From Candidatus Doudnabacteria bacterium (GTDB lineage Bacteria > Patescibacteriota > Doudnabacteria > UBA920 > O2-02-FULL-48-8), in contig JACPKU010000007.1 of assembly GCA_016186915.1 (NCBI GenBank), positions 1-45,788 on the forward strand: a stretch of DNA of 45,788 nt. Direction: 5' to 3'. The position numbers were made by a program, and so were the translations under genes. The notes beneath the pieces are model-generated. The model did not search any database. It was given only the letters and a program-made list of their open reading frames with translations, and was not told the origin of the DNA. Position 1 is the stretch's first letter. The number at the start of each line of letters is the position of its first letter. Positions 1,407 through 24,022 of this stretch are shown in pieces.

Positions 1407-1833
1407 AGTTCTAAGTTAATAGTTCTTAGTTCGTAAAGTACTAAGTTATAAAGTCTTAATCAGCCCCGAGATCAATTTTGAGATTTCTACTGTTGCTCTG
1501 TAAATATGCTCGAATTGATCCTTTGTTATATAGCCTAATTCCAAAGCAATATAAGCCATAGATCTGACTTCTGCACAAGAACCCTTGGCTATATACAGAA
1601 ACTTTCTGAATTCTTTATTGCCTTTTCTTTCGAATCCTTCGGCAATATTATTTGACATGCTGACCACGGCACTCCTGATTTGATCGCGGAAACTGAAGTC
1701 GCGATTATCTTTAAAAACTTGGTAAACATAAATCGCCAAGTCCCTAGACTTCTGCCACGAGATTATATCTTCAAATTTTTCTATCACCATATAACTTTAT
1801 GAACTTAGAACTTAGAACTTAGAACTCAGAACT
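1407..1833. repeat. 7-mer (GAACTTA) tandem repeats in inverted orientation on both sides of the four-helix gene; a further patch near 3104-3138
   Basis: gaactta-gaactta-gaactta-gaactca-gaact at 1801-1833; degenerate reverse-complement units at about 1407-1448. Confidence 0.75.
1446..1790 (-). CDS. Four-helix bundle protein (23S rRNA intervening-sequence protein family)
   Basis: FEDIISWQKS, DQIRSAVVSMSNNIAEGFER and FLYIAKGSCAEV motifs. Confidence 0.9.
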   Translation of the reverse strand: MVIEKFEDIISWQKSRDLAIYVYQVFKDNRDFSFRDQIRSAVVSMSNNIAEGFERKGNKEFRKFLYIAKGSCAEVRSMAYIALELGYITKDQFEHIYRATVEISKLISGLIKTL

Positions 1834-1835
1834 TT

Positions 1836-2582
1836 CTATTTGATAACATCCTCTAATAACTTCACGCCCTCTTCGTAAGATAAGCCGTGAGTTCTAAAAA
1901 CCAACGCCCCAATACCCGGGTTAGGGGTGCTTAAGATAGCCGCCGGCCTGCCCGCCGAAGCTTCAGCGAAGGCGGGATCTCCATTCCCGTCTGCTTCCAC
2001 GGTATTTTTAATGATGTAGGCGGTATAAGGCACGAAACTGCCGCTGGGAATAGTGATGGTTTGCTCGACCGTGATCTCTACGACCGGGTCTTGATCAGTC
2101 AGGTGCAGCTTCAATTTATTCCCGACATTTTCAAACCAAGCAGTCTTAAACAAGACAAGACCTAAGTCTGGGCAGTTTTTATACCCCGTGGTGGCATAGC
2201 CAAAATCGAGATTGGAACTGTTCTGAAACGTGCCCACCGCCAAGAAGCCTTCGGAACATTCATATGTTTCTACCCTGACCTCACCGAAACTCGCCGGATA
2301 GGTAAACTCAAATTCGTATTCGGGATTTCTGTAGATTTTCTTGTCCGCCGACTCACTTAAGACAGGGGGCGCCTGAATGTCGCCAACAGTTGCGGGCTCA
2401 CCTTCCTGCGGCACTGAATTTTGATCAGAAGGCTGGGACCCGATCTCGTAAGTTTTTTGCTCGCCCAAAATATCTTGGTTGGGATTCCCAGCTTGGTTAT
2501 TTTTATAAAAATTTAAACCCGCGGCAATCGCGATAACTGCCAGAACCCCTAACCACATTATAATTTTATTTTTGGGAGTCAT
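1836..2582 (-). CDS. Membrane-anchored hypothetical protein
   Basis: N-terminal TM helix, YRNPEYEFEFTYP (PsbP-like CPR motif); an in-frame palindromic repeat encodes PAFAEASAGRP. Confidence 0.7.
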   Translation of the reverse strand: MTPKNKIIMWLGVLAVIAIAAGLNFYKNNQAGNPNQDILGEQKTYEIGSQPSDQNSVPQEGEPATVGDIQAPPVLSESADKKIYRNPEYEFEFTYPASFGEVRVETYECSEGFLAVGTFQNSSNLDFGYATTGYKNCPDLGLVLFKTAWFENVGNKLKLHLTDQDPVVEITVEQTITIPSGSFVPYTAYIIKNTVEADGNGDPAFAEASAGRPAAILSTPNPGIGALVFRTHGLSYEEGVKLLEDVIK

Positions 2583-2609
2583 GTTAAGTAATAAGAATTG
2601 TTAGTTGCT

Positions 2610-3077
2610 TCGCAATCCTGATGACAATCAGGATCTCTTTACAAACTCTTCGTATAAGTCTTTCCATTCTGGGTTATACTTTTCGATTAGCTCTATTTTC
2701 CATTGTCTGTGCCAATTTTTAATTTGTCTTTCCCGTTCTAACGCCTGTTCTACCGTCTCACACGGTTCAAAGTATACAAGCTTCGTCAAATTGTATTTCT
2801 TGGTAAAGCCTTCTACTAACTTCCGTTTATGTTGATCAATTCTTTCCAGACCATAACCTGAACTGCCTGTATATAACACGGTATTCGTCTTATTCGTCAT
2901 TATATAGATCGCGGGTTCTCGGTCGTCCATAATTTTTTGAGATGCTGAATTAAATTCAGCATTACGTGAGAGAGTCAGGGTTCGTCCCTCCTCCCGCAAT
3001 CCTGATGTCATTCAGGATCTCTTTCTTTGAGACCCTGAATCAAGTTCAGGGTTGCGTAAGAGTGTTCAGGATTGCGA
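2610..3077. repeat. Paired REP-like palindromes flanking the GIY-YIG gene
   Basis: CGCAATCCTGATG-CA-TCAGGATCTCTTT at about 2611 and 2995; GAGA--CTGAAT-AA-TTCAG at about 2939 and 3029. Confidence 0.8.
2628..2930 (-). CDS. GIY-YIG nuclease (short UPF0213-like)
   Basis: AIYIMTN...LYTG..ERIDQH...GFTKKY..KLVYFE...ALERERQIKNW..NPEWKDL; start reassigned to the ATG at 2930 because upstream codons are repeat DNA. Confidence 0.9.
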   Translation of the reverse strand: MDDREPAIYIMTNKTNTVLYTGSSGYGLERIDQHKRKLVEGFTKKYNLTKLVYFEPCETVEQALERERQIKNWHRQWKIELIEKYNPEWKDLYEEFVKRS

Positions 3078-3128: not shown

Positions 3129-3875
3129 TCAGAACTTATTTCTTAGCCTTTGAATCTCGGCCTCATAAATCTCGTAGCTCTCCGGATGCGCTTCTTGGGC
3201 CTTTTGCCACTGCTCGATTGCTCCACTTATGTCGCCAATGCTTTCCAAATACCCAGCAAAGCTGGTAAAGATATCGGTCTTTTCCTTTACCGCTGCTTCA
3301 GCCAAGGCATATAAGTCCCGAATTTCAGATTCCGACCAATCTAATTTTTCCACGGCCAACAGCAGATACCGTCTCCAAGCGTCGGGATTATTCGGCAGGA
3401 GCTCCAAAGATTTTTGAATGCTTGCTTCCGCTTGTTGGTAGTTTCCCATTTCAAAGTAAACTTGGTATAAGTGGACATAAATATTAAAGTTTTCCGGATT
3501 AACCTCGGCCGCTTGAATAAAAACATCCCTGGCCTCGGCCAGCTTGCCTAATCCAGACAGCTGGACGGCCTTGTAAACCAAAGCGTCGGATTTTTCTTGA
3601 TTATCTTTGGCTTCGGCAATAAATCTCTCGGCCTCAACCAAACGGTCTTCGTAAACCTTGCGGTCTTCGTCGCTTAGCTTGCGGTCCACTTCCTCAATGA
3701 AACTGGTTTGCTTCTGTTGCTCCTGCCAAACCGTAAAGCCTATGACTGCGCCGAGTAAAATAATAGCAATTAGGATTCCAAAAATAAGTTGTTTATTTCC
3801 GCCAATAGATTTTGCGCCAGCCGGAGGCTCAACCTTCGGCTGAAGTCCGCCCCCGGCGGACATTTCTTCGTTCAT
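3129..3875 (-). CDS. Membrane-anchored TPR-repeat protein
   Basis: TM helix followed by TPR-like helices (A...P.N..Y..L...Y..MGNY..A); the N-terminal about 25 aa are encoded by a palindromic repeat. Confidence 0.8.
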   Translation of the reverse strand: MNEEMSAGGGLQPKVEPPAGAKSIGGNKQLIFGILIAIILLGAVIGFTVWQEQQKQTSFIEEVDRKLSDEDRKVYEDRLVEAERFIAEAKDNQEKSDALVYKAVQLSGLGKLAEARDVFIQAAEVNPENFNIYVHLYQVYFEMGNYQQAEASIQKSLELLPNNPDAWRRYLLLAVEKLDWSESEIRDLYALAEAAVKEKTDIFTSFAGYLESIGDISGAIEQWQKAQEAHPESYEIYEAEIQRLRNKF

Positions 3876-4002
3876 AAATTATTCATTTAATTGCCTGACA
3901 ATTTTAGCAAAAAAGCTGGATCTTTTCAAGCATAAATTCAACGGGTTGTCATTCTGAACGCAACCTTTTCCTCCTTGTCATCGCGAACTTTTTTCCATTC
4001 TC

Positions 4003-4631: not shown

Positions 4632-7600
4632 TTAGTTAGTCATTGTGTTCGACGTGGTCGGCAAGAACTTGAGCAAGTGATTGTTGACCCAGTCAAGAGT
4701 GCCGGTGTCGTGGTTGGCCGCTGACATATCGCTCCAGACGAATGTTGCGTCGTCTGCAGTAAGATCATTGTCATTGGTCAGGTATGCGGCGGAGTCAACG
4801 TGCGCCAAGTTGGAGCCAATGTAGGTGGACACGTATTCTCCAGTGGAGATTGCGCCACCTGCGGTTACCCGAACTTCATAGGTCTTAGCGCCGCTCACGG
4901 TTTCTTCCACGTTAAGATCGGCTTTGGTGCCGACGGTAATGAGAAGTTCGCAAGTCGTGTCTGACGCATCGCAATCAGCGTCTGCGCCTTCATCAGAGTT
5001 CTGGAATATTTCCGCGGCTGTAACTTGAGTGTTACCACCGCTGGTGACATCCCATATGCTTGGAACGGTCAAAACCGGATCAAGGCTCTTGCTGATGTAG
5101 ATCAAAACGTCCTTCCAAGCCACTGAACCGGTGCCATTGGTATTCACTGTGAACTTGGCAATGGTCCTGGTGCCAGCTGTTAAGGCGGTGGAAGGCAGGT
5201 TTTCGTAGGTCACGGTCGGTACGGCTTTGTAGACGTACATCACGTTGCCTGCTGGATCAGCCGAAGCTTCAGTGACTGCTGCTGAGACACCTTGTGAATT
5301 TCTGCGGGTGGCAGAAGTCAAGGTGGTCAGAAGCGAGGAACCGGTAGTGCCTGCGCCCACACCTACGCTGGCCATAGTCAGTTCAACTTTCAGCACAACA
5401 TTGTTGTTGGCATCCACAGGCACTGACACATTGTTGAAGGTTGTGGTAGCGGCTGCGGGCTTGCTGGCAACTGTCGTGCCGTCAGCTTTCTTTAGGGTGA
5501 CGGTTGAGACAGCTGAAACATTGGCGATTGTGAAGGTGATGTCTGTGACGGTAAAGCCGTCATAGAGCGATTCAAACTTCCATGCGCCAGAGACCACGGT
5601 GCCGGAATCATCAACCAAGGCGGAAACCGGGGCCGAAGCGTCTTTCGACACTGTCAGGGTTCCAGCTTCAACGGTGATGGTTTGCCCGGTCGCGCCATTG
5701 TCAGTAGCAACGGCGTCGGAGTCAGTGTCGGCATAGACAGTAGTACCAGATTGAGCAGTGATACCAGTGACACGCATGTAAGTAATCATGGTGTCGTCAC
5801 TGCCGGCAGCAGTGATGCTTGAACCAATGGTGGCCCAAACTTCTACGGTCATGCTGCCGTCTATCGGAAGCGTTTCGCTGACTGACCAGGAGTTGGCCAT
5901 GGAGGTGATTGAACCGTCAGCTACCGTTCCTTTGATGGAACTGGTCTTGCCACCGTATTTAAGAAACACGTTGGTCAGATCGTCTGATGGGTCAAACGTA
6001 TCATTGCCCACAAAACCGATGGCCATGGTGTTGAGGTTCACAGCTTCAGTGGCATTTCCCGTAAGGTCAAACGAAGCCAGCTTGTAAGAGCTTTGAGGTG
6101 CAACCGTGCTCTGGTTTGGATAGCTTGGAGTTGAAGCCAAAGCGATCGAGCCAGAAGCAATGGTTAAGCTGTTGGCATTAACGTTCGCGGAAGGAACATC
6201 CAGGGTGCCCAAGGAAACCTGCGGCACCGCGTTGTTGAGAGTAGCGCCGCCAACCAAGGCCACTTGTACTGTGGTCGTAGTTAAGAGCGCGATTTGATCG
6301 GTGCCTTCATTGTCAAAGATGTCGGCACGGAATTCCACGGTGGCCGGGGTTCCAGGGTTAACCAAAAAGTTAACCGTGAAGCTTTGGCCGGTCGCGGCGG
6401 CATCAGCGGCAGCCACATGAGTGGTTGAGCCATATTGCGCGCCGTTGATCATGACGCGGCCATTGCGGAAGGTGTTGTCGGCATCAGTGCCGTTCACATC
6501 AATACCCACAGTCAGGGTTTCCAATTTCACTGCTTCGCCATAGACCGTAACGGTCCAGGTGCCCAATGAAACATCCGATCCGCCAACAGTCACATTTTGT
6601 GATTGTGAGTTGGAGGCCTTGACCACAGTCACAGTGCCGGCGTTAACCGTAAAGGCAGCTGGATCATATGGGAAGGCATCACCCGTGGCCGTAACAATCG
6701 GAGCGGCATTGTATTGGGTGTCAATCACGCGGATATCGTAAGCGCCGCGCAGCGACATTTGGACCGTGCGTCCGGAGCCGCCGATGACGTCAGCGATAAC
6801 TTTGAGCACGCGGGAACCGGTGGTCAAAGTTTTGCTTAGGGTGAAGGTAACATAGCCGTTGCCATCCAAGGCTGCTTGGGAGGCTATTTCCACGCCATCA
6901 ACAAACAATCGGAAGTTCTTGATGTCTACTGATTGAATGGAACCAATTTGGCGCAAAGCCAAACGATTCAGAGTAACATCGCGAGTGGTAACAGAGACAG
7001 TGCCCTGCCAGACATTGATGTCAGTGCCAGGATCTGTGTCGCCAGAGCCGGTAGGCGCAGTGCTTAAGTCAGCGCCTGCCAAAGTGGCGGTGGCGATGGA
7101 GTGGTTGTTGCCAGCAACTGGCAAGCCACCGACTGAGCCGGACGAGAGAGTCACGGCAGTCAATTTCACGCCCACGGTTTCACCGGCGGTAGCGGCCATG
7201 TCAGCTCGGGCAGAAACTGTCTTGGTGCCTGAAACTGAGAACAGACCGCCTGAATTGCTGAAGTTGATCACGCTGCCGGAGGTAACAGAAGCGGCATCAG
7301 TAACTCTGACATCGCCGTCAAACAAATAAACGTTGGTCAGCGAGGTGTCAGCTGAAATGCCGGTTCGCTGCATGGTAACGGCGGTTACAGTGCCAGAGCC
7401 TGAGAACACGAAGTTCGCCAGGACCGCTTGGGATTCGTCGTTGATTAGAGTGGAAGCAGCGGGACCGGACAGCGAAACGTTAAGAGATCCTGTGGGGGTG
7501 GAAACGCTGGCACAAGTGCCGCGAGCTTCCACCAGTCCTTCGTCCGTGGCTGCGAGGTCAGCAGAGTTGGCAGTCACGACTTTGGCCAAACTAAAGCCAT

Positions 7601-8171
7601 GGGAGTTAAAGACGCTCATAGAAGCGATGCCTTTGCGTCCAGTGGCAGTCATTTGCCAAATGGTGCCGGAAGCGTTGACCAGCACGCCTGCACTGTGGCG
7701 TTCGGTGGCGGACTCGAGATTGGCGCCGGTGGGCAGGTCAGCAAAAGTGTTGACTGCCGCGGACATGATGTTAGCAAAGCTAAAACCCAGTCCGGTAAAC
7801 ACCGAGCCGGAAACGAATCCTCGCTTTTGTCCGTTGGCTACTAAGTAGACCAAGGGATCAGAAGGCCCCTTGACTAAAGAGCCGTCTGCGTAGACCTGAA
7901 TGGGACCTACTGGCAGAGTGGCATCTTCAGAGTTAGCGGCAACCACTTGACCGAAGTTATTCCCGTGAGAGGTAAAAACTTCCGCGGAAGTGTAACCCCG
8001 CTTCTGTCCGCCGGTCACCAAATAAACGGTGCCCGACTCATTGATCAGACAGTTGTCGCCATGAGGAGCAGCAAAAGCTACAGGCAAAGCAAATAATGAC
8101 ACACTCCACAAAATCATGGAGATGGCCAATCCGCCTGCCAAGCCTCTGCGTGCTTGAATAGATAATTGCAT
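4632..8171 (-). CDS. Large secreted S-layer-like/cell-surface protein
   Basis: 1179 aa; signal peptide; N-terminal repeats (GTVYLV..GQKR...S..VF...G..F..V); Ala/Thr/Ser/Val-rich beta-sandwich body; SD AGGAG. Confidence 0.8.
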   Translation of the reverse strand: MQLSIQARRGLAGGLAISMILWSVSLFALPVAFAAPHGDNCLINESGTVYLVTGGQKRGYTSAEVFTSHGNNFGQVVAANSEDATLPVGPIQVYADGSLVKGPSDPLVYLVANGQKRGFVSGSVFTGLGFSFANIMSAAVNTFADLPTGANLESATERHSAGVLVNASGTIWQMTATGRKGIASMSVFNSHGFSLAKVVTANSADLAATDEGLVEARGTCASVSTPTGSLNVSLSGPAASTLINDESQAVLANFVFSGSGTVTAVTMQRTGISADTSLTNVYLFDGDVRVTDAASVTSGSVINFSNSGGLFSVSGTKTVSARADMAATAGETVGVKLTAVTLSSGSVGGLPVAGNNHSIATATLAGADLSTAPTGSGDTDPGTDINVWQGTVSVTTRDVTLNRLALRQIGSIQSVDIKNFRLFVDGVEIASQAALDGNGYVTFTLSKTLTTGSRVLKVIADVIGGSGRTVQMSLRGAYDIRVIDTQYNAAPIVTATGDAFPYDPAAFTVNAGTVTVVKASNSQSQNVTVGGSDVSLGTWTVTVYGEAVKLETLTVGIDVNGTDADNTFRNGRVMINGAQYGSTTHVAAADAAATGQSFTVNFLVNPGTPATVEFRADIFDNEGTDQIALLTTTTVQVALVGGATLNNAVPQVSLGTLDVPSANVNANSLTIASGSIALASTPSYPNQSTVAPQSSYKLASFDLTGNATEAVNLNTMAIGFVGNDTFDPSDDLTNVFLKYGGKTSSIKGTVADGSITSMANSWSVSETLPIDGSMTVEVWATIGSSITAAGSDDTMITYMRVTGITAQSGTTVYADTDSDAVATDNGATGQTITVEAGTLTVSKDASAPVSALVDDSGTVVSGAWKFESLYDGFTVTDITFTIANVSAVSTVTLKKADGTTVASKPAAATTTFNNVSVPVDANNNVVLKVELTMASVGVGAGTTGSSLLTTLTSATRRNSQGVSAAVTEASADPAGNVMYVYKAVPTVTYENLPSTALTAGTRTIAKFTVNTNGTGSVAWKDVLIYISKSLDPVLTVPSIWDVTSGGNTQVTAAEIFQNSDEGADADCDASDTTCELLITVGTKADLNVEETVSGAKTYEVRVTAGGAISTGEYVSTYIGSNLAHVDSAAYLTNDNDLTADDATFVWSDMSAANHDTGTLDWVNNHLLKFLPTTSNTMTN

Positions 8172-8676: not shown

Positions 8677-8769
8677 GTTTGAGTAAATTTGTTAGAATCT
8701 TCAAAGAATGTGCGAAAGTAGCACAAATGGTAGTGCACCTTGCCTTCCCCGCCTGCCAAGGCCTTTGGT

Positions 8770-8843
8770 GCGGGATTAGTATAGTGGTAGTACATCACCC
8801 TTCCAAGGTGAGAGGACGGGTTCAAGTCCCGTATCCCGCTCCA
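8770..8843 (+). tRNA. tRNA-Gly(TCC)
   Basis: GCGGGAT acceptor stem, TCACC-CTTCCAA-GGTGA anticodon arm, GGTTCAAGTCC T-arm, encoded CCA. Confidence 0.95.
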
Positions 8844-9074
8844 GTGGCATCGGCGGGCAGGCAAGGTGGGACGTAGGGTTCTTGAGCACATTTATGAACA
8901 AATATTGGCGAAATCCGCCTAAGTCCAGCGGACAAAGGCGGAGATTCCGGTATCCCGGCTTCAATAAGATAAAAAACCGACTAAATATTGGCGATTTTTT
9001 GTTTGTCCACATAATTAAAAACTGCTAATGATAGGTTCAAAACAATTATTCACATTTTATCTACAACCACACAA

Positions 9075-15896: not shown

Positions 15897-16097
15897 CTAA
15901 CTTTTGACTTTTGACTTTTGACTTTTGAGTTTCAATACTTGCTTGCCTTTGTAGTAGCCGCAGTTGGTGCAGGCCTGATGAGGCATCGCTGGGTATTTAC
16001 AATTCTGACAAATGCTGAGATTGATCTTGCTTAGAGCGTCGTGCGATCGTCTTTGGTTGCGCGAGGATCTGGTTTGTCGTTTTTTAGGTACTGGCAT
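15897..16097 (-). CDS. rpmF: 50S ribosomal protein L32
   Basis: [19 protein letters not shown]...PH.AC..CGYY; C-terminal tail encoded by a (TCAAAAG)n repeat. Confidence 0.95.
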
Positions 16098-16202
16098 AAG
16101 GTTAGAATATAGAATGTTGAATGTAGAATATGGACTGTTAATTTATAGCATAAAAAGTTGTGCGAGTCAAAAAAATTACCCTTATATCTCTTTTCTTAGC
16201 GA

Positions 16203-16458
16203 GGAATTCCTGCGAAATTAGCCTTCGGAACCCTGCCCGCGGCAGGGTGAGAACGCAGGGAACGTCTGACGTTCCAGGCTGCGTTTCGTAGCAACGAAAC
16301 GACAGCCGTTAATTTCGCAGGAATTCCGAGCGCTCCCAGGCAGCTGCCGACGAACAGGAGACCAGCGCTAGTTTTGCAAATAGTACTGGATTCGTCGACA
16401 GGTGTCTGAAAACGGGATGGAGAGAGCGCAAGTGCGGTTAAGCTACCGCGCTCTCTCC
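16203..16458. ncRNA. Putative structured RNA/ssDNA domain at the end of cassette 1
   Basis: Perfect 18-bp stem GGAATTCCTGCGAAATTA/TAATTTCGCAGGAATTCC (16203-16220/16310-16327) enclosing three hairpins; GGAGAGAGCGC/GCGCTCTCTCC stem at 16409-16458. Confidence 0.6.
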
Positions 16459-16469
16459 TTGAACGCACC

Positions 16470-16733
16470 TCACGGATCTGGTTCGTCAGCCAGGCCGAAA
16501 GGGACGTTATTGCAGTCCGGGTCTTGCTCGCACTCGGCCAGCGCTTTCTCCATCTTGCGCTGGAAGCGCTGGTCAGGCGTGCGGACTGCTTCGAGCTCCT
16601 GACGCACCTCCTCGCTGGGATTAGGCGCGAGCAGTACAAGCAACGCCCCTATCACCAGCAACGAGACGACCGCCGCAATCACCCACGCGAGCACGCTATT
16701 GCCTTGGGGCGATCCAACGATTTCGCCTCGCAT
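16470..16733 (-). CDS. Orphan single-TM protein (87 aa), cassette 1
   Basis: Start reassigned to the ATG at 16733 behind AAGGGGG; TM helix then charged helix and CxxxxxC. Confidence 0.65.
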   Translation of the reverse strand: MRGEIVGSPQGNSVLAWVIAAVVSLLVIGALLVLLAPNPSEEVRQELEAVRTPDQRFQRKMEKALAECEQDPDCNNVPFGLADEPDP

Positions 16734-16746
16734 AGTTTGTCCCCCT

Positions 16747-16860
16747 TTAGAGCAAGGCCGCCGCGACCACAATGATTGCGATCACGACGATGGCGCCAAC
16801 TACGTACTTGGCCCGCCCTGACTGCTTGGGCGGTTCCGGGTTCAGTAGGATCGACGGCAT
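16747..16860 (-). CDS. Orphan 37-aa membrane peptide, cassette 1 (not in ORF track)
   Basis: GGGAGG-aaaca-ATG; MPSILLNPEPPKQSGRAKYVVGAIVVIAIIVVAAALL. Confidence 0.6.
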   Translation of the reverse strand: MPSILLNPEPPKQSGRAKYVVGAIVVIAIIVVAAALL

Positions 16861-16871
16861 TGTTTCCTCCC

Positions 16872-17036
16872 TCAGTGTACCGTTGGCCGACCCAACGGAT
16901 GAAAACAAACGCGAATGACCACGTCCTCGAGTTCTTGACGCTCAAGCGCGATCTCGTCGCGACTCAAACGCTTGGGACCAGTAGGACCATATCCGAACCT
17001 CGCGAACTTGTTTGGGACGTCAGGACCCTTTTGCAT
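16872..17036 (-). CDS. Orphan 54-aa protein, cassette 1 (not in ORF track)
   Basis: AGGAGG SD; MQKGPDVPNKFARFGYGPTGPKRLSRDEIALERQELEDVVIRVCFHPLGRPTVH; tiles head-to-tail with the next two ORFs. Confidence 0.6.
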   Translation of the reverse strand: MQKGPDVPNKFARFGYGPTGPKRLSRDEIALERQELEDVVIRVCFHPLGRPTVH

Positions 17037-17106
17037 ATAATGGTCCTCCTACACCTCCACAATATAAGATACTTTGAGAATTCATACAAGCATCCTAAAT
17101 TCCAAA

Positions 17107-17395
17107 GGCTTCTCCCGCCGCTAAGCTTGAAGCTCAAGCTCACTGGCGGGAGAAGATCTGAAGTCTTGGGGGACTATCAGATCTCCGTGAAGTTTCCTGG
17201 CGGGGGCCAGTGTAAGCTGGCAGCCTGCGTTTGAAACGCAGTTAGGAAACCTCGGTTTGCCGGTGGATTTTGTGGGTCCCCTATCACCGGCAGGTGGGCG
17301 AACTCCGACGGACCGAGCAGCCGGCCTTGGCGTCAAGTCGAATGACCCGAAGGCCAAGCGCCAAAAGCGCTGCGACAGCGAGAAAGGTGCATAGC
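17107..17395 (+). ncRNA. Putative structured RNA/ssDNA domain at the end of cassette 2
   Basis: Consecutive stems CTTCTCCCGCC/GGCGGGAGAAG, AGATCTGA/TCAGATCT, GTTTCCT/AGGAAAC, CTCGGTTT/GGACCGAG (G-U on +), TGCCGGTG/CACCGGCA, GGCCTT/AAGGCC. Confidence 0.6.
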
Positions 17396-17420
17396 TCAGC
17401 CATCGGACTCCTCCTTCGCC

Positions 17421-17636
17421 TCATCCGAGCCTTCTTTTCCAAACCAACCAAGCGCCGACAACGCCTGGCAAGTATACGATGGCAGCCTCGACAAAGACTG
17501 CCGTGACACCCCAGCCGAGCCCCAACTTAGGCTCCAGCCAGAGCCACAGCGGGTCGTGAACATCGCCGATGGGTCCGCCCTGAAAGGCGAATAGAAAGCC
17601 GGATAGTGCGAGCAAAAACACACCCAGAATTTGCAT
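17421..17636 (-). CDS. Orphan 71-aa two-TM membrane protein, cassette 2
   Basis: AAAAGGAGGA-cttg-ATG at 17636; hydrophobic with a basic WKRR C-terminus. Confidence 0.7.
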   Translation of the reverse strand: MQILGVFLLALSGFLFAFQGGPIGDVHDPLWLWLEPKLGLGWGVTAVFVEAAIVYLPGVVGAWLVWKRRLG

Positions 17637-17854
17637 CAAGTCCTCCTTTTGCGTCCACAATTCAGGATATTTATTCTAAGAAGTTCTGTGAGACTAAAAT
17701 TACTTGATTCTCTCTTAACTTAAATAAATATCCTACTTTTGCGGAAACAAACTAGTTTGCAAGAAGTTTAATCTTTCAACTAACAACTGTCAACTGTCAT
17801 TTCCGATCCTCTGACCTCCACTTCAATACGTTAAAGTATTAAAGTGAAGCCCAA

Positions 17855-17986
17855 GGGAAGGGAGGCTGGACGAAACGCAGTGAAGCGAATCGACCAGCCA
17901 TACTAAGAGGGATCTGTGCGCGGATATGGAATCCGCACAGCGCGGTCACCTTCTTCACGATGTCCACCGGGCGGTGGATCAAGCCG
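17855..17986 (+). ncRNA. Conserved structured element, copy 1 (homologous to 19022-19165)
   Basis: Three-hairpin fold with compensatory changes relative to copy 2. Confidence 0.7.
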
Positions 17987-18239
17987 TCGGGTGGTAAATG
18001 AACCCGCCCAGGTTGTCGGGACTGCACGAGCCGTCGCATACCCCCTTTGGCTCGAACGAGATGTCCTCTGCGTAGCTCACGTTACCGTCCTGGTCGAACC
18101 AGACATGGATCAACCAATCAACGTGAGAGTGGCCGTCGCAACCGTAATTCCTCTGGACTTCCACCTTGCCGAGGCCACCGCGGACATCAGCAGGCTCCTT
18201 GCTCTCCACCTCAACTCCGTAAATTCGGTAACCGTTCAT
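17979..18239 (-). CDS. Orphan 86-aa Cys/His-containing protein, cassette 3
   Basis: AAAAAGGAGGA-cagc-ATG at 18239; CDGHSH...CDGSC possible metal site; a 26-codon uORF (18236-18316) overlaps its start as ATGA. Confidence 0.7.
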   Translation of the reverse strand: MNGYRIYGVEVESKEPADVRGGLGKVEVQRNYGCDGHSHVDWLIHVWFDQDGNVSYAEDISFEPKGVCDGSCSPDNLGGFIYHPTA

Positions 18240-18334
18240 GCTGTCCTCCTTTTTTGCTCGGGTTTGCTCGGGCGAGCGATATTTCGGGCACACTGGTCGC
18301 ACACCTTGTCCTCCATAACTTCTCTGGAACCATT

Positions 18335-18379
18335 CCCTCCCAGAAAATTCCAATTGCTTGAAATGCTCTGGGAGAGAAA
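18335..18379. repeat. 45-bp imperfect palindrome at a cassette boundary; second copy at 20732-20776
   Basis: CCCTCCCAGAAAATTCCAATTGCTTGAAATG(C/T)TCTGGGAGAGAAA, 44/45 identical. Confidence 0.9.
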
Positions 18380-18432
18380 AAGAATTGATTTGATTTTTAA
18401 ATAACAATAAATTATACTAAGATTACTAACTT

Positions 18433-18690
18433 ATGAAAAGACCGAAGATTGCTCTGAGCCACCACGCACATTATCAGATCAAGGAACGGAAACTGTCAAT
18501 TCAGAAAGTCAAAGCAGTCGTTCTTAGTCCAGACAAAGTCACAAAGCAACCTGACAACCGCTTCTTGGCTTACAAACTAGTTAAACGCTCTGATAAAGAT
18601 TATCTGTTAATCGTGATTTATGAACAAACCAACTCAAGGCTTAAAATCGTGACCACATTCTTAACCTCTAAACTTCGTAAATATTTATGA
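18433..18690 (+). CDS. DUF4258-like (RelE-fold) putative toxin
   Basis: LSHHA..QIKERKLS...V..V..SPD...LLIVIYE....KIVTTF. Confidence 0.75.
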   Translation: MKRPKIALSHHAHYQIKERKLSIQKVKAVVLSPDKVTKQPDNRFLAYKLVKRSDKDYLLIVIYEQTNSRLKIVTTFLTSKLRKYL

Positions 18691-18902
18691 AATTCCATTA
18701 CGATAAAAAAATTGACGCTCTCTCTATCCGTTTCAATGACAAACGGTATGTTGAGTCTGACCAGGTTTCGGATGACATCATCTTTGATTATGACAAGCAA
18801 GGACATATCATCGGGATAGAAGTGCTTAATGCTTCCAAACGCTTCCCCAAAGAATTTCACAAACAACTTCATAATAAGCTAATTCCAGTCCAAACCGTCT
18901 AA
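18687..18902 (+). CDS. DUF2283-family protein (putative antitoxin)
   Basis: MKFHYDKKIDALSIRF...DDIIFDYDKQGHIIGIEVLNASK; ATGA overlap with the upstream gene. Confidence 0.85.
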   Translation: MKFHYDKKIDALSIRFNDKRYVESDQVSDDIIFDYDKQGHIIGIEVLNASKRFPKEFHKQLHNKLIPVQTV

Positions 18903-18982
18903 GCAAGGCGCCTGCCCGCCAAAGCTCGAAGAGCAAAGGCGGGGTTTTAATTTATCAAAGAACTTTCCCTTCCTCTACGCTC

Positions 18983-19012
18983 CACTTATAATACGTTAAC
19001 GTATTATAAGTG
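18983..19012. repeat. Perfect 30-bp palindrome; degenerate copy at 17819-17846
   Basis: CACTTATAATACGTTAACGTATTATAAGTG vs CACTTCAATACGTTAAAGTATTAAAGTG. Confidence 0.85.
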
Positions 19013-19021
19013 TAGAACAAA

Positions 19022-19165
19022 GGAAGGGGCTGGACGAACGAATTGCTTGCTGTCCAGCTGCGTTGGTAGGGACTTGTGCGCGAGCAGGATGCTCGCACAG
19101 CGAGGTCACCTTTCACGATGCTTGCCGAGCGGCAGACATCGGCTGGTTTTCTGGTCCAGCAACCA
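19022..19165 (+). ncRNA. Conserved structured element, copy 2
   Basis: GCTGGAC/GTCCAGC; GACTT..CGAGC-AGGAT-GCTCG..AGGTC; CGATG-TGCC-GAGC-GGCA-CATCG. Confidence 0.7.
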
Positions 19166-19167
19166 CT

Positions 19168-19794
19168 TTAGTGCCTCCTGCTAACCACGTAGTTCACTCG
19201 CACTTGGGAACCGGCCGGCAACTTCTGGAACCACAGTTCCACACTGCCGGCCTGGTTGAACTTCACCGTTCCCGTGACGAACGGCTTATGCTCCCAAGCC
19301 TGATCCCCGAACTTGTAGGCGGCGTAGCCCGCACCCGCCTTGAACCGGCCAAAGTCGTACTCGAGCTTCGCCCGGTCGAGAACGTGCTGGATACGTGCAA
19401 TTTTGTTGATCGGCACGTACAGCAGATAGTTGGCCTGCGCGCTCACCCGCTCGGTCAGTTGGAACAGTCCGAGCACGAACGGTTGGACGTATCGCTCGGA
19501 TGTTCCCGGACTGATGGCCTGAACAAAGTAGGTCTCGGCCACCAACGCCATCCGCTTGGCAGGCGTGAGCACTCGGCCGGCACCGACATACAGCTCACGA
19601 TAAACGTCAGAGCCGAAGTCAATGTAGCCAAGATCCCAGGCCACCGTATTGCCTCGAGTCTGATAGACCTCAAGCAACCGATATGTATGGCCGTCGGAGT
19701 TGCCAGCGATGCGGAACTCCGCACTGGTTTCGGTCTGCGCGAAAAGCTGCACAGGCAGGCTGATTACAAACAGAACAACAAGGATTCTGGTCAT
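19168..19794 (-). CDS. Secreted protein resembling an outer-membrane beta-barrel, cassette 4
   Basis: GGAGG-caagc-ATG at 19794; signal peptide (..QLFA|Q); alternating hydrophobic beta-strands rich in Tyr/Gly. Confidence 0.65.
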   Translation of the reverse strand: MTRILVVLFVISLPVQLFAQTETSAEFRIAGNSDGHTYRLLEVYQTRGNTVAWDLGYIDFGSDVYRELYVGAGRVLTPAKRMALVAETYFVQAISPGTSERYVQPFVLGLFQLTERVSAQANYLLYVPINKIARIQHVLDRAKLEYDFGRFKAGAGYAAYKFGDQAWEHKPFVTGTVKFNQAGSVELWFQKLPAGSQVRVNYVVSRRH

Positions 19795-20299
19795 GCTTGC
19801 CTCCATGCGCTTTCGCGCCAAAAAAGAACGATCTAGTTGCTTCCACAATCTTGAACACTTTATTTAAGCATCAAAAATTCTGGAAACAATATTCTCCCTC
19901 ACCCCCGTCCCCTCTCCCCTGAGGGGAGAGGGGAGTTCTAATTTGTAAAAATCATTTGCACAACTCTGGGTGCTAAGAAACTTCTTGGAACTATGGTACT
20001 GAATAATTTTCCTGTTTAACTGCTAACGCCCAGAATGGTGGAAACCAGCCTTCTCCCGGACTTGATCCGGGGTTGGACTGATAAGTAAAATGTATATACA
20101 AAAGTATATACACAGATATAACTTTTTTAATGTTCGATCATATAATATTGTATTATACTTAAATACTGTAAAGTATTTAAGTTTTTCCGATCCTCTGCCC
20201 CGAACCAAATGGTTCTGGGGCAAGGGAAGGGAGAGAGACGGGATTTACTCAATCAAGAGTGTCAACCATCTCTCTTCTTCACACACAAACTTCCTCCAA

Positions 20300-20662
20300 T
20301 CATTTCTGTGATCGGCCCGCTGCTCTCGTCCTGAAGTACTGGACGAGCATGGGCAGAACAATGAGTAGTCCCAACATCCTCATCGCATTGCCGATCAAAT
20401 CGTACTCCGGCCAGAATGAGATGGTCGAACCGACAACCATCCCGACCGCGCCAGTCCAGAAAACCAGACAGGAGAACATGATCTCCGGGACTGTCGCCAG
20501 AGCGCCGCCATACCCGAGAATCGGGAGGCCGTTACTCAAAAGCTCTCCCGACCAGCCCGCAAGAAACGGGAAGTCTTGGATCACCCGTGGGTGACCCACG
20601 AAGAACCCGATGAAGACCAGCACAACGCCGAACTTCAACAAAGCCTTAGCACAGCGGTCCAT
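20300..20662 (-). CDS. Orphan multi-TM membrane protein (120 aa), cassette 5
   Basis: GAGGTG SD; three to four hydrophobic segments, basic C-terminus. Confidence 0.7.
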   Translation of the reverse strand: MDRCAKALLKFGVVLVFIGFFVGHPRVIQDFPFLAGWSGELLSNGLPILGYGGALATVPEIMFSCLVFWTGAVGMVVGSTISFWPEYDLIGNAMRMLGLLIVLPMLVQYFRTRAAGRSQK

Positions 20663-21302
20663 ACTCTATCACCTCGCGCATTATTCCCACGCCTTTGGCG
20701 GGGTCAGCGCAAAAAAGAACGATCTATTCCTCCCTCCCAGAAAATTCCAATTGCTTGAAATGTTCTGGGAGAGAAATACCTATAAATTTTTGAGCGAGGG
20801 TTGTCTGCGAAAAAAGAATCTCGGAGCTGAAACCGCTTAGTTCCTGCGGTTACAGGGAGAGCTTAGCGGCAAATTTTGCGTCCAGTAAAATTTGACCTCG
20901 TCTTTTTTCACAGACACCCGAGCGTTATTTCCACAATTCTGGGCACTGCTGTATGCAAGTGTACGGGCATAAAAAATATGGTTATCCCTCTTAAGCATAA
21001 GTTGAATGCCCAGAACAGTGGAAACAATAACGCGGGATGGCGGGCAGGTTAAACCTCACTTGTCCGCCGAAGTCCCGCAAAGCGGGACGTAGGCGGATAG
21101 AGTGCCCAACATCCGAGAAGCAAAAAATCCCTTGTTCAGGGACTATTCTAGCTCTGCTATAAGCTATCAGCTAAAAGCTATAAGCTTACGGCTTCCGTCT
21201 CCTGAACGGAAAATTATATATAGTAACCCTTCGATTTCGCTTCGCTCCGCTCAGGGATCAAATGTTGCCTGAGCTTGTCGAAGGCGATCATGTAAGGGTC
21301 TA

Positions 21303-21348
21303 TTTTCAAAGAACAGGCAAGTATATACCAAAATCGCAATCTTGTCAA
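21303..21348 (-). promoter_or_regulatory. sigma70 promoter followed by a boxA-like antiterminator, pointing into the cassette array
   Basis: On the - strand: TTGACA-17-TATACT-tgcct-GTTCTTTGAAAA. Confidence 0.75.
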
Positions 21349-21435
21349 CCCCTTTAGAGTAAATATTGGCTAATATAAGCCAATATTTATCTTTTTGATA
21401 TAATAAACCCAAGACCCCAAAGGAGGATATTCGCG

Positions 21436-22239
21436 ATGAAAAGACTGTTGCTTGTGCTGGCACTGACAGTTGGTGCCATGCAGGCACCAGTTGGACAGGA
21501 ACAAACGCCTGAACCGAACCGCATCAAGCGGGTGCCAGAAGACACGCGAGACTGGGTGAATGCCTACTTCCCGCCCGAAGTCATGGAAGTGCTTTGGCTT
21601 ACTGACTACGCTGCCTTAGACCAAGCCTATGAGAACGGCTGGCTGGTTGATATCCCGCAAAACAGCGACCCCTTGGCAGAAGCTCTGGGGATTCGATTGC
21701 AGACAGAAGGCGACTTCCCCATTGCCGAAGCAGAACCCGATCCCAAGCTTAAGGTCAAGCTCTTCCGCCTGGCCAAGCCTGGGGCAGGCTTGCTCTACTC
21801 GATCGCTGATCATGTGCGAGAGGAAGAGAGAAAAGAACGAGAAAGAAGAAAGCTCCAACCAAGGCCGTTCTTGCCCATCGGCGTTACAAGCCTGGTCAGA
21901 ACGGCAGAATACCAAGCCCGCCTGATTCCTCTCAACGCTAACGCAGATACAGAGAGTCAGGGCGTACCAGCGACCCACATAACTGGATTGGTGACTGACA
22001 TCACGCGCGCGAACATGACTACAGCGCGTGATAGAATCGTCTCTAACTATCTGATCGAGCTTAGAGACGCTGATAAGATCCTTTACTTCCGTGAAGGGGC
22101 CAAACAGGCCACCTACCACGTGATCGCACTCCTGCAAACCCGCGAATTCTTCGAGGCCGAGTATGACCGACTGCTCCTTAAGGCCCGGGAACGAATGGCC
22201 GCCGAGGCACAAGGAACAATCGAAAAGCCGAACGACTGA
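21436..22239 (+). CDS. Secreted DUF5715-like / peptidase M15 (LAS)-type Zn protein
   Basis: AAGGAGG SD, signal peptide, VTSLVRT.EYQ..L...N.NA....PATHITG...DI (H-x6-D) and TYHV; hairpin plus T-run terminator at about 22224-22260. Confidence 0.7.
   Translation: MKRLLLVLALTVGAMQAPVGQEQTPEPNRIKRVPEDTRDWVNAYFPPEVMEVLWLTDYAALDQAYENGWLVDIPQNSDPLAEALGIRLQTEGDFPIAEAEPDPKLKVKLFRLAKPGAGLLYSIADHVREEERKERERRKLQPRPFLPIGVTSLVRTAEYQARLIPLNANADTESQGVPATHITGLVTDITRANMTTARDRIVSNYLIELRDADKILYFREGAKQATYHVIALLQTREFFEAEYDRLLLKARERMAAEAQGTIEKPND

Positions 22240-22336: not shown

Positions 22337-24022
<1,686 letters not shown>

Follow-up and report, generated by a model that had tools for sequence, protein, structure and literature searches.

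Structured non-coding modules frame an integron-like gene array downstream of groEL in a Candidatus Doudnabacteria chromosome, with spacer hairpins biased towards the sense strand

In integrons, each attC site is an imperfect palindrome of 50-160 nucleotides (nt) with an R'' box (RYYYAAC) at one end and an R' box (GTTRRRY) at the other, and its recombinogenic bottom strand is the antisense of the cassette open reading frame (ORF). Clusters of attC sites lacking integron-integrases (CALIN) are without an integrase by definition. Structured RNA also punctuates polycistronic sense transcripts, where the RNase III hairpins of T7 early mRNA and stabiliser stem-loops of the repetitive extragenic palindromic (REP) type occupy intergenic positions. 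The closest published parallel to the present locus that we found comes from prophages, in which clustered hammerhead ribozymes flank genes of changing identity; the authors who describe them propose that long transcripts are thereby divided into gene-length mRNAs (Perreault et al. 2011, PMC3088659). Here we analyse 45,788 nt of a Candidatus Doudnabacteria genome (GCA_016186915.1, contig JACPKU010000007.1), hereafter the window, which resembles a candidate-phyla (Patescibacteria) chromosome with a GC content of 40-50% and the majority of its genes on the minus strand. Our subject is a distinct island at about 16.1-21.1 kb, reaching from rpmF (15897-16097) to the ORF preceding groEL (22337-23992) and enclosing the interval that an earlier note on this DNA had singled out. 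The island is chromosomal, with rpmF and nusB on one side and groEL on the other, and the gene array that it holds lies downstream of groEL.

We put at about even chances the reading in which the GC-rich genes of the island are the exchangeable contents of an integron-like array and the conserved frame around them acts in the sense transcript. On its 5' side, every gene or short block is framed by one of two spacer hairpins, R1 or a 45-nt hairpin, sometimes accompanied by a branched element and by a small GC hairpin that lies against the ribosome-binding site; on the 3' side the frame closes with a multi-stem element beginning at the stop codon. Carried in the sense transcript, these modules would mark off, protect or process individual cassette mRNAs, and may be likened to the ribozymes or RNase III sites that cut phage polycistronic RNAs. 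The four structured non-coding families thus distinguished (R1 hairpin, 45-nt hairpin, branched element and multi-stem 3' element) all fold much better than dinucleotide shuffles (z -3 to -11.5). Throughout, the minus strand is the sense strand of the cassette genes, and strand z scores are controlled by dinucleotide shuffling.

The earlier note had proposed that the spacer hairpins fold in the sense strand, and this holds for six of the seven hairpins in the window, which favour the minus strand by 4-13 kcal/mol in RNA minimum free energy (MFE); the composition-controlled z also favours sense in six of seven (z 1.6-2.9). R1 hairpins are 69-118 nt long, conserved at both ends and variable in between, and occur in five window copies, all on the minus strand. 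The short form at 17046-17114 (cmsearch 42.5 bits, E 1e-6), which adjoins the ribosome-binding site of the ORF at 16872-17036, folds to -19.8 kcal/mol in sense against -7.0 in antisense, with six G-U pairs in sense and none in antisense; over 17040-17112 the corresponding values are -20.1 and -7.0. A second short form at 19832-19900 (52.4 bits) gives -21.2 against -9.1, with a strand z of 2.92. The long forms lie at 17644-17760 (78 bits, E 4e-14; -32.0 in sense against -24.5, folded over 17645-17760), at 20920-21037 (83.7 bits; -41.4 against -36.7 over 20920-21032), which is the groEL-proximal (5') end of the array, and at 19947-20057 (81.6 bits). The last of these is the exception to the sense bias, with -23.6 in sense against -25.3 in antisense (z -1.06), the same values being obtained over 19950-20050. 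Both copies of the 45-nt hairpin, also on the minus strand and 98% identical (direct repeat D2), favour sense: -27.0 against -17.9 kcal/mol at 18334-18379, and -27.3 against -17.8 at 20731-20776 (z 2.29). The plus-strand A-C mismatches that had been read in the boundary hairpins are likewise present, two in each 45-nt copy and one each in 17645-17760 and 19832-19900 (1x1 mismatches in the MFE folds).

Two relatives of the array extend these comparisons to three genomes. A genome-wide pattern scan with a degenerate 3'-element signature returned 21 loci, against a chance expectation that we estimate at about 25-35; an R1 covariance model identified two of them as true relatives and, at E up to 1, matched nothing in the remaining 19. 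The first, L003, is from Candidatus Doudnabacteria (MFER01000012.1), and its array directly follows groEL in the same orientation. It carries R1 three times (one copy, at E 2e-8, being new to the model), together with a branched element and four 3' elements, and its hairpin at 1351-1450, also positioned next to groEL, shares 73% identity over 109 nt with the R1 copy at 20920-21037. The second, L019, is labelled uncultured Candidatus Saccharibacteria (CAYOPE010000001.1); four of its hairpins belong to R1 and two are of the 45-nt type, and a branched element and a 3' terminal hairpin of canonical form are also present. L019 and the window agree in leader order, which runs from a hairpin through a branched element, the 45-nt hairpin, a U-run and a small GC hairpin to the ribosome-binding site. 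The three arrays thus have a non-coding frame in common and wholly different genes, with no BLASTP match between arrays at E 0.01 among their 19 ORFs.

Sense is favoured in 13 of 16 hairpins across the three genomes (six of seven R1 and 45-nt hairpins in the window, two of three R1 in L003, and three of four R1 and both 45-nt-type hairpins in L019), with a combined z, by arithmetic, of about -6, in which the two 45-nt copies are not independent. When seven R1 copies are combined, five from the window and two from a relative, RNAalifold yields a consensus of -23.6 kcal/mol with 23 pairs in sense, compared with -7.6 kcal/mol and 13 pairs in antisense, and the helix cells comprise 118 Watson-Crick, 25 G-U, 2 A-C and 14 other combinations. 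In all 12 sense R1 copies, G-U cells outnumber A-C cells by 37 to 7. An alignment of 11 copies from three genomes pairs in 90.3% of 248 cells, compared with 81.0% in shuffles (none of 500 reaching the observed value) and 38-50% with slid partners; by arithmetic, 79.8% of cells pair when the helix is read as antisense. Because 13 of the 23 pairs have changed on both sides, what is conserved appears to be the pairing of a single strand and not a double-stranded binding site. The best-scoring R1 matches are co-oriented with the ORFs in every case (five of five in the window, three of three in L003 and four of four in L019), and elsewhere in the 45.8-kb window R1 has no match below E 0.1.

Several observations favour, indirectly, a role at the level of RNA. 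With DNA parameters the strand asymmetry nearly disappears (for example, -24.1 versus -24.5 kcal/mol), and the short hairpins, which as RNA reach -20 to -21 kcal/mol, attain only -5 to -8.5 kcal/mol as DNA. The hairpins are placed in 5' leaders, some within a few bases of a ribosome-binding site. The GCGC-GAAA-GCGC hairpin that had been noticed at 19807-19818 is indeed on the minus strand, directly 5' of a ribosome-binding site and with its GNRA loop on the sense strand; it is part of a recurring leader module of U-run, small GC hairpin and ribosome-binding site, and in L003 and L019, too, analogous small GC hairpins can be read from the sequence ahead of ORFs. An L019 cassette has in its 3' region, at 2653-2708 on the plus strand, which is sense there, a candidate type III hammerhead with a complete core. 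It aligns with RF00008 in the core and stems II and III (33.4 bits, E 3e-4, against a gathering score of 48.5), and its MFE fold differs from a hammerhead, while the centroid retains stems II and III. Since the spacer hairpins behave as single-stranded elements of sense polarity, the suggestion that a sense transcript is punctuated or processed at the spacers is plausible, with indirect support from the L019 candidate. The acting molecule would then be RNA and its function cleavage or stabilisation. Transcription termination fits poorly: 16000-21500 has seven terminator-like sites, no excess over the 6.7 in shuffles, and none of them falls on a hairpin of the R1 or 45-nt type. A promoter-like site at 17793-17765 (minus) stands just upstream of the R1 copy at 17644-17760, as a 5'-end stabiliser with a promoter directly before each hairpin would have it; we rejected that idea because it does not fit the other copies.

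This placement invites comparison with the RNA punctuation already described. Like the T7 RNase III and REP stem-loops, the hairpins stand shortly before ribosome-binding sites or close behind stop codons; unlike them, they have invariant end motifs, belong to one array only, and are common to genomes whose intervening genes differ. Like the clustered hammerheads of prophages, these are sense-strand structured elements flanking single genes or short blocks of varying identity, and L019 adds a candidate hammerhead-like core. Unlike those hammerheads, the array modules match no Rfam ribozyme, and their setting is a chromosomal array of candidate-phyla bacteria and not a recognisable prophage.

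The genes within the frame have the character of cassettes. Eight small minus-strand ORFs, parted by AT-rich spacers and each with a GGAGG-type ribosome-binding site, have a GC content of 55-64% and a GC content at third codon positions (GC3) of 0.55-0.79, compared with a GC3 of 0.43-0.59 in five host genes (groEL, nusB, rpmF, hisS and nrd) and 0.58-0.60 in two other window ORFs (21436-22239 and an ORF of 1179 aa). Across the three loci, the 19 array ORFs (eight in the window, five in L003 and six in L019) span 0.55-0.88. Families were sought by Pfam in 52 ORFs, and by NCBIfam and PHROGs in the 16 ORFs (12 of the window and four of L003) that had no confident Pfam assignment or were previously unscanned; no cassette ORF scanned has a confident match in any of the three. 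Towards rpmF lie ORFs of 87 aa (16470-16733), 37 aa (16747-16860) and 54 aa (16872-17036), with GC3 values within 0.55-0.79 and no family in these databases, the 37-aa ORF not itself being in the scan. They are followed by ORFs of 39 aa (17284-17403) and 71 aa (17421-17636). The latter has no family above cut-off, and a longer TTG-started reading of its frame (17421-17660) gives a weak, sub-threshold match to DUF2231 (Pfam E 0.0078). An 86-aa ORF at 17979-18239 is also of no known family. The 208-aa product of 19168-19794 has a signal-peptide-like N-terminus, and a search with it found 12 proteins including the window's own, the sole named one being from a Candidatus Doudnabacteria metagenome-assembled genome (MAG). 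The orphan ORF at 20300-20662 (120 aa) encodes a predicted membrane protein for which a length-restricted word-index search returned nothing beyond itself. All eight ORFs are on the minus strand. On the opposite strand to these array genes, a low-GC pair (18433-18902, plus; GC3 0.42-0.43) encodes a DUF4258 protein with a RelE/barnase-like nuclease fold and a DUF2283 protein (Pfam E 8e-7 and 3.5e-19), and is probably a toxin-antitoxin pair. Toxin-antitoxin pairs are frequent in chromosomal integron arrays. A terminator-like hairpin after the pair was read by eye and is absent from the terminator-scan list.

Multi-stem 3' elements start at the stop codons of these genes. Elements A (17797-17978, immediately following the stop codon of the ORF at 17979-18239) and B (18960-19167) are homologous, with compensatory changes between them in six pairs, while C (20184-20299) represents a shorter subtype with a conserved pyrimidine-rich/purine-rich base to its terminal hairpin, and D (17105-17283, after the 17284-17403 ORF) is divergent. 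All four are on the minus strand. D includes a palindrome at 17109-17155 and the region of a helix formed by CTCGGTTT.

Several points weigh against the idea that this frame works in the sense transcript, whose RNA function we infer from the properties above. In the five R1 copies that were outside the training of the model, the ratio of G-U to A-C is only 12:5, and, as a sense-strand model guided the alignment, the overall ratio is somewhat flattered. Hairpins without the sense bias occur at 19947-20057, at L003 1344-1453 and at L019 3574-3677, the latter two being among seven hairpins of the relatives. The GC skew of the plus strand is steadily negative across the window and the array's sense strand is G-rich and presumably leading, so that strand-biased C-to-T mutation could add to the G-U excess; shuffles control composition, not mutation history. 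Folded single-stranded DNA also tolerates G-T pairs, and a role at the DNA level is thus possible. The strand signal of the 3' elements is weak, and at least one wobble conserved in A and B, a T-G pair beside the central hairpin, favours the plus strand. The L019 hammerhead candidate scores below the Rfam gathering threshold, and the hammerhead core motif has no match in the window. Furthermore, the comparison comprises three loci, with stretches of 4 kb each for L003 and L019.

Alternatively, the hairpins, or the terminal hairpins of the 3' elements, may be single-stranded DNA recombination sites analogous to attC, with the cassettes moved by some recombinase and the fold borne by the DNA strand of sense sequence. 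The layout is strikingly integron-like. As in integron and CALIN arrays, co-oriented, unrelated and mostly orphan ORFs of atypical, seemingly foreign composition are each provided with a structured site; behind each ORF comes an imperfect palindrome, conserved at its base and variable at its top; a reversed toxin-antitoxin-like pair is embedded among them; and the gene content at the same locus differs wholly in related genomes. In being G-rich the sense strand resembles a typical leading strand, whose sequence is the one exposed on the lagging-strand template. The modules are also mosaic between cassettes. A 17-nt motif, D10, is identical at 19819-19835 and 20710-20726, where it follows an R1 and a 45-nt hairpin, respectively, and a D10-like motif follows a 45-nt-type hairpin in L019 (about 3866-3880). 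It is the occurrence of D10 beside two hairpin types, and of the 45-nt hairpin with different leaders, that makes the modules appear mosaic. Unlike integrons, however, the array lacks the R''/R' consensus, and its sites are multi-stem and of at least four families rather than one. A search by regular expression on both strands for box pairs at least 5/7 complementary found three in the window and one in 16000-21500, and that one (20014-20078) is not at a cassette end. The window has no IntI: Pfam detected no tyrosine recombinase (Phage_integrase) or other recombinase domain among the 52 ORFs scanned, and NCBIfam and PHROGs added none in the 16 ORFs submitted to them. The polarity is also the reverse of that of attC, with a sense-strand folding bias here and hairpins 5' as well as 3' of genes. 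The short hairpins would be very weak as DNA, at the -5 to -8.5 kcal/mol given above, and no cassette was seen in two contexts. We therefore regard recombination sites as unlikely, though not negligible as a possibility.

The asymmetry might instead be a functionless by-product, the hairpins being palindromic DNA repeats (of the REP kind, protein-binding, or like miniature inverted-repeat transposable elements, MITEs) whose wobbles reflect skew and strand-biased mutation. Composition does account for part of the bias. The plus strand of 17044-17115 holds 22 C to 6 G, and of the 12.8 kcal/mol by which the two strands of this stretch differ, 8.4 are predicted from shuffles; in addition, the whole array leans to the minus strand in raw MFE, in keeping with the steadily negative skew. 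The asymmetry between G-U and A-C is accordingly usable as a strand indicator only once base composition is controlled, and half of the pattern is then gone. What survives is the sense bias of 13 of the 16 hairpins after dinucleotide shuffling, and it stands together with the compensatory changes in more than half of the helix pairs. Nor do the R1 copies behave like dispersed MITE or REP sequences, a candidate that we rejected, since all 12 share the orientation of the genes and, in the window, none below E 0.1 lies outside the array. Thus, we consider a mere by-product improbable, more so than recombination sites.

The structure of the cassette interiors bears on a further proposal, that single strands of both polarities exist, with the conserved fold of the interiors borne by an antisense copy. 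The plus-strand helices on which the earlier note had built this view are all found in the sequence: CTCGGTTT at 17251 pairs with GGACCGAG at 17310 with two G-T pairs on the plus strand, the second arm running slightly past 17307; GACTT at 19071 pairs with AGGTC at 19103 with one; and GCTCGGG at 18256 (also 18266) pairs with TTCGGGC at 18283 with three. Folding of both strands, which upheld the preference of the hairpins for sense, revealed no preference of the interiors for the plus strand beyond composition. In raw MFE, elements A (-83.1 kcal/mol in sense versus -74.0 in antisense; strand z 2.09 towards sense) and B (-92.5 versus -89.3) fold better in sense, C (-47.6 versus -48.6) is even, and D (-82.4 versus -88.1) alone does better on the plus strand. 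The preference of D arises because its plus strand is rich in G and T, and the element as a whole has a z of +1.87 towards sense. Over 17156-17283, the plus strand (42 G and 35 T versus 28 C and 23 A) reaches -54.5 versus -42.1 kcal/mol for the minus strand, a difference that shuffles reproduce (mean difference -11.5, z -0.26). Eight 3' elements have 26 G-U pairs in their sense folds versus 30 in antisense folds, ten of the 30 being supplied by D, and once composition is controlled 8 of 11 3' elements from three genomes lean to sense. A scan of 82 sliding 120-nt windows over 16100-21100 agrees: 62% lean to sense beyond composition (mean z -0.35), no interior window has a real plus preference, and the lone strong plus outlier, at 20960, cuts a hairpin in half. 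A U-G pair in the terminal hairpin of the 3' elements, which favours sense, is kept in all five aligned copies. The conserved 3' elements, then, fold as well or better in sense, and an antisense copy as carrier of the fold is not supported.

Despite the few helices with G-T pairs on the plus strand only, one such wobble being kept in A and B, and the slightly better raw folding of C and D there, a replicating RNA or a template or cDNA of a reverse transcriptase (RT) is very improbable, given the lean of the 3' elements and of their terminal hairpin to sense, the rpmF/nusB-groEL setting among chromosomal housekeeping genes, the same scaffold next to groEL in L003, and the lack of any reverse transcriptase or replicase-like gene among the window ORFs scanned. 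We rejected retrons, diversity-generating retroelements (DGRs) and other RT-templated elements on the same grounds: no RT domain, and no antisense-specific fold beyond composition. More generally, no reverse transcriptase, integrase or transposase was found among the ORFs of the 45.8-kb window scanned with Pfam, NCBIfam and PHROGs. BLASTN of 16100-21400 gave no match to phages and, to plasmids, one 40-nt chance match.

Returning to the sense-transcript reading, the array is of a kind already known, since cassette arrays and structured RNA punctuation of polycistronic transcripts are both described, and it is not categorically new. A bolder version is that it represents a cassette platform of candidate-phyla bacteria, undescribed before and situated downstream of groEL, in which unrelated GC-rich orphan genes are inserted into a fixed scaffold made up of four or more new families of structured RNA, whose modules are both cassette boundaries and cis-acting processing devices, perhaps new self-cleaving or nuclease-recognition motifs interchangeable with a hammerhead. 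This version, which draws on MAGs labelled Doudnabacteria and Saccharibacteria together with the window, is possible but doubtful, and it presumes that the cassettes are exchanged and processed. If true, it would be an integron-like system punctuated at the RNA level. We found no description of integron-like arrays in candidate-phyla bacteria in open-access papers and preprints. The genomes of these bacteria are tiny, and how they acquire and express accessory genes is little understood. A conserved non-coding scaffold that frames changing foreign genes at one site would be a new organisation of accessory genes, and it would offer several unclassified structured RNAs as candidates for cleavage or protein binding.

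Among these are the branched elements, here labelled 'TWJ'. The first, at the rpmF-proximal end of the array (16203-16327, minus; inverted repeat I4), is closed by a perfect 18-bp stem and folds equally well on both strands (-79.2 kcal/mol in sense versus -81.6 in antisense, z about -11.5 on both); the second (20799-20919, minus; inverted repeat I7) likewise has no strand bias. Relatives occur at about 2594-2700 in L003 and at 3664-3800 in L019. A short conserved GC-rich motif flanks the element, which follows an R1 hairpin in three of four occurrences and has no Rfam match. With MAFFT and RNAalifold, neither three nor four copies gave consensus pairs, and the family is defined from single-sequence folds.

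The terminal hairpin of element B is topped by a perfect 28-nt AT-rich palindrome (18984-19011) with arms of about 11 nt and a 6-nt centre. An identical copy forms the tip of the terminal hairpin of an otherwise diverged 3' element at L003 3186-3213, and degenerate versions lie at 17820-17845 and 20157-20182 in the window. The palindrome could be a core site for protein binding or recombination. An Xer/dif-like site was considered as an idea only and set aside, there being two exact copies and no recombinase in the window.

In L019, the array opens with a 377-nt non-coding stretch (440-816, plus) that folds to -142.0 kcal/mol in sense versus -126.3 in antisense (strand z -2.4) and has no Rfam match at E up to 1. 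In the window, the only Rfam 15 matches at gathering threshold are two tRNAs, and within 16000-21500 at E up to 5 there is just sub-threshold noise from microRNA-type hairpins and no family. Just upstream of the array, a strong promoter-like site at 21348-21320 (minus; TTGACA, 17 nt, TATACT, 11/12) precedes, by about 180 nt, a hairpin at 21144-21126 (minus) that resembles a terminator and has a U tract. The stretch at 21348-21126 may be a small RNA or a leader, and it holds a repeat of a kind that we take to be common in candidate-phyla genomes.

Elsewhere, Pfam identified the housekeeping genes rpmF, nusB, groEL, hisS, a class II ribonucleotide reductase, nrdR and comEC, and the window also encodes Lamin-tail-domain and further proteins typical of small genomes. 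The 1179-aa ORF (4632-8171, minus) stands in a stretch of 50-56% GC without flanking array modules, and has a confident match in none of Pfam, NCBIfam and PHROGs. The tRNA-Gly gene at 8770-8843 (plus) appears, by eye, to be set between GC-rich inverted repeats within 8741-8870, which could form a long stem resembling a processing stem. Finally, at 1446-3011 (minus), a gene for a 23S rRNA intervening-sequence protein adjoins a GIY-YIG nuclease gene, and short hairpin-type repeats occur near these genes, for example around 3940.

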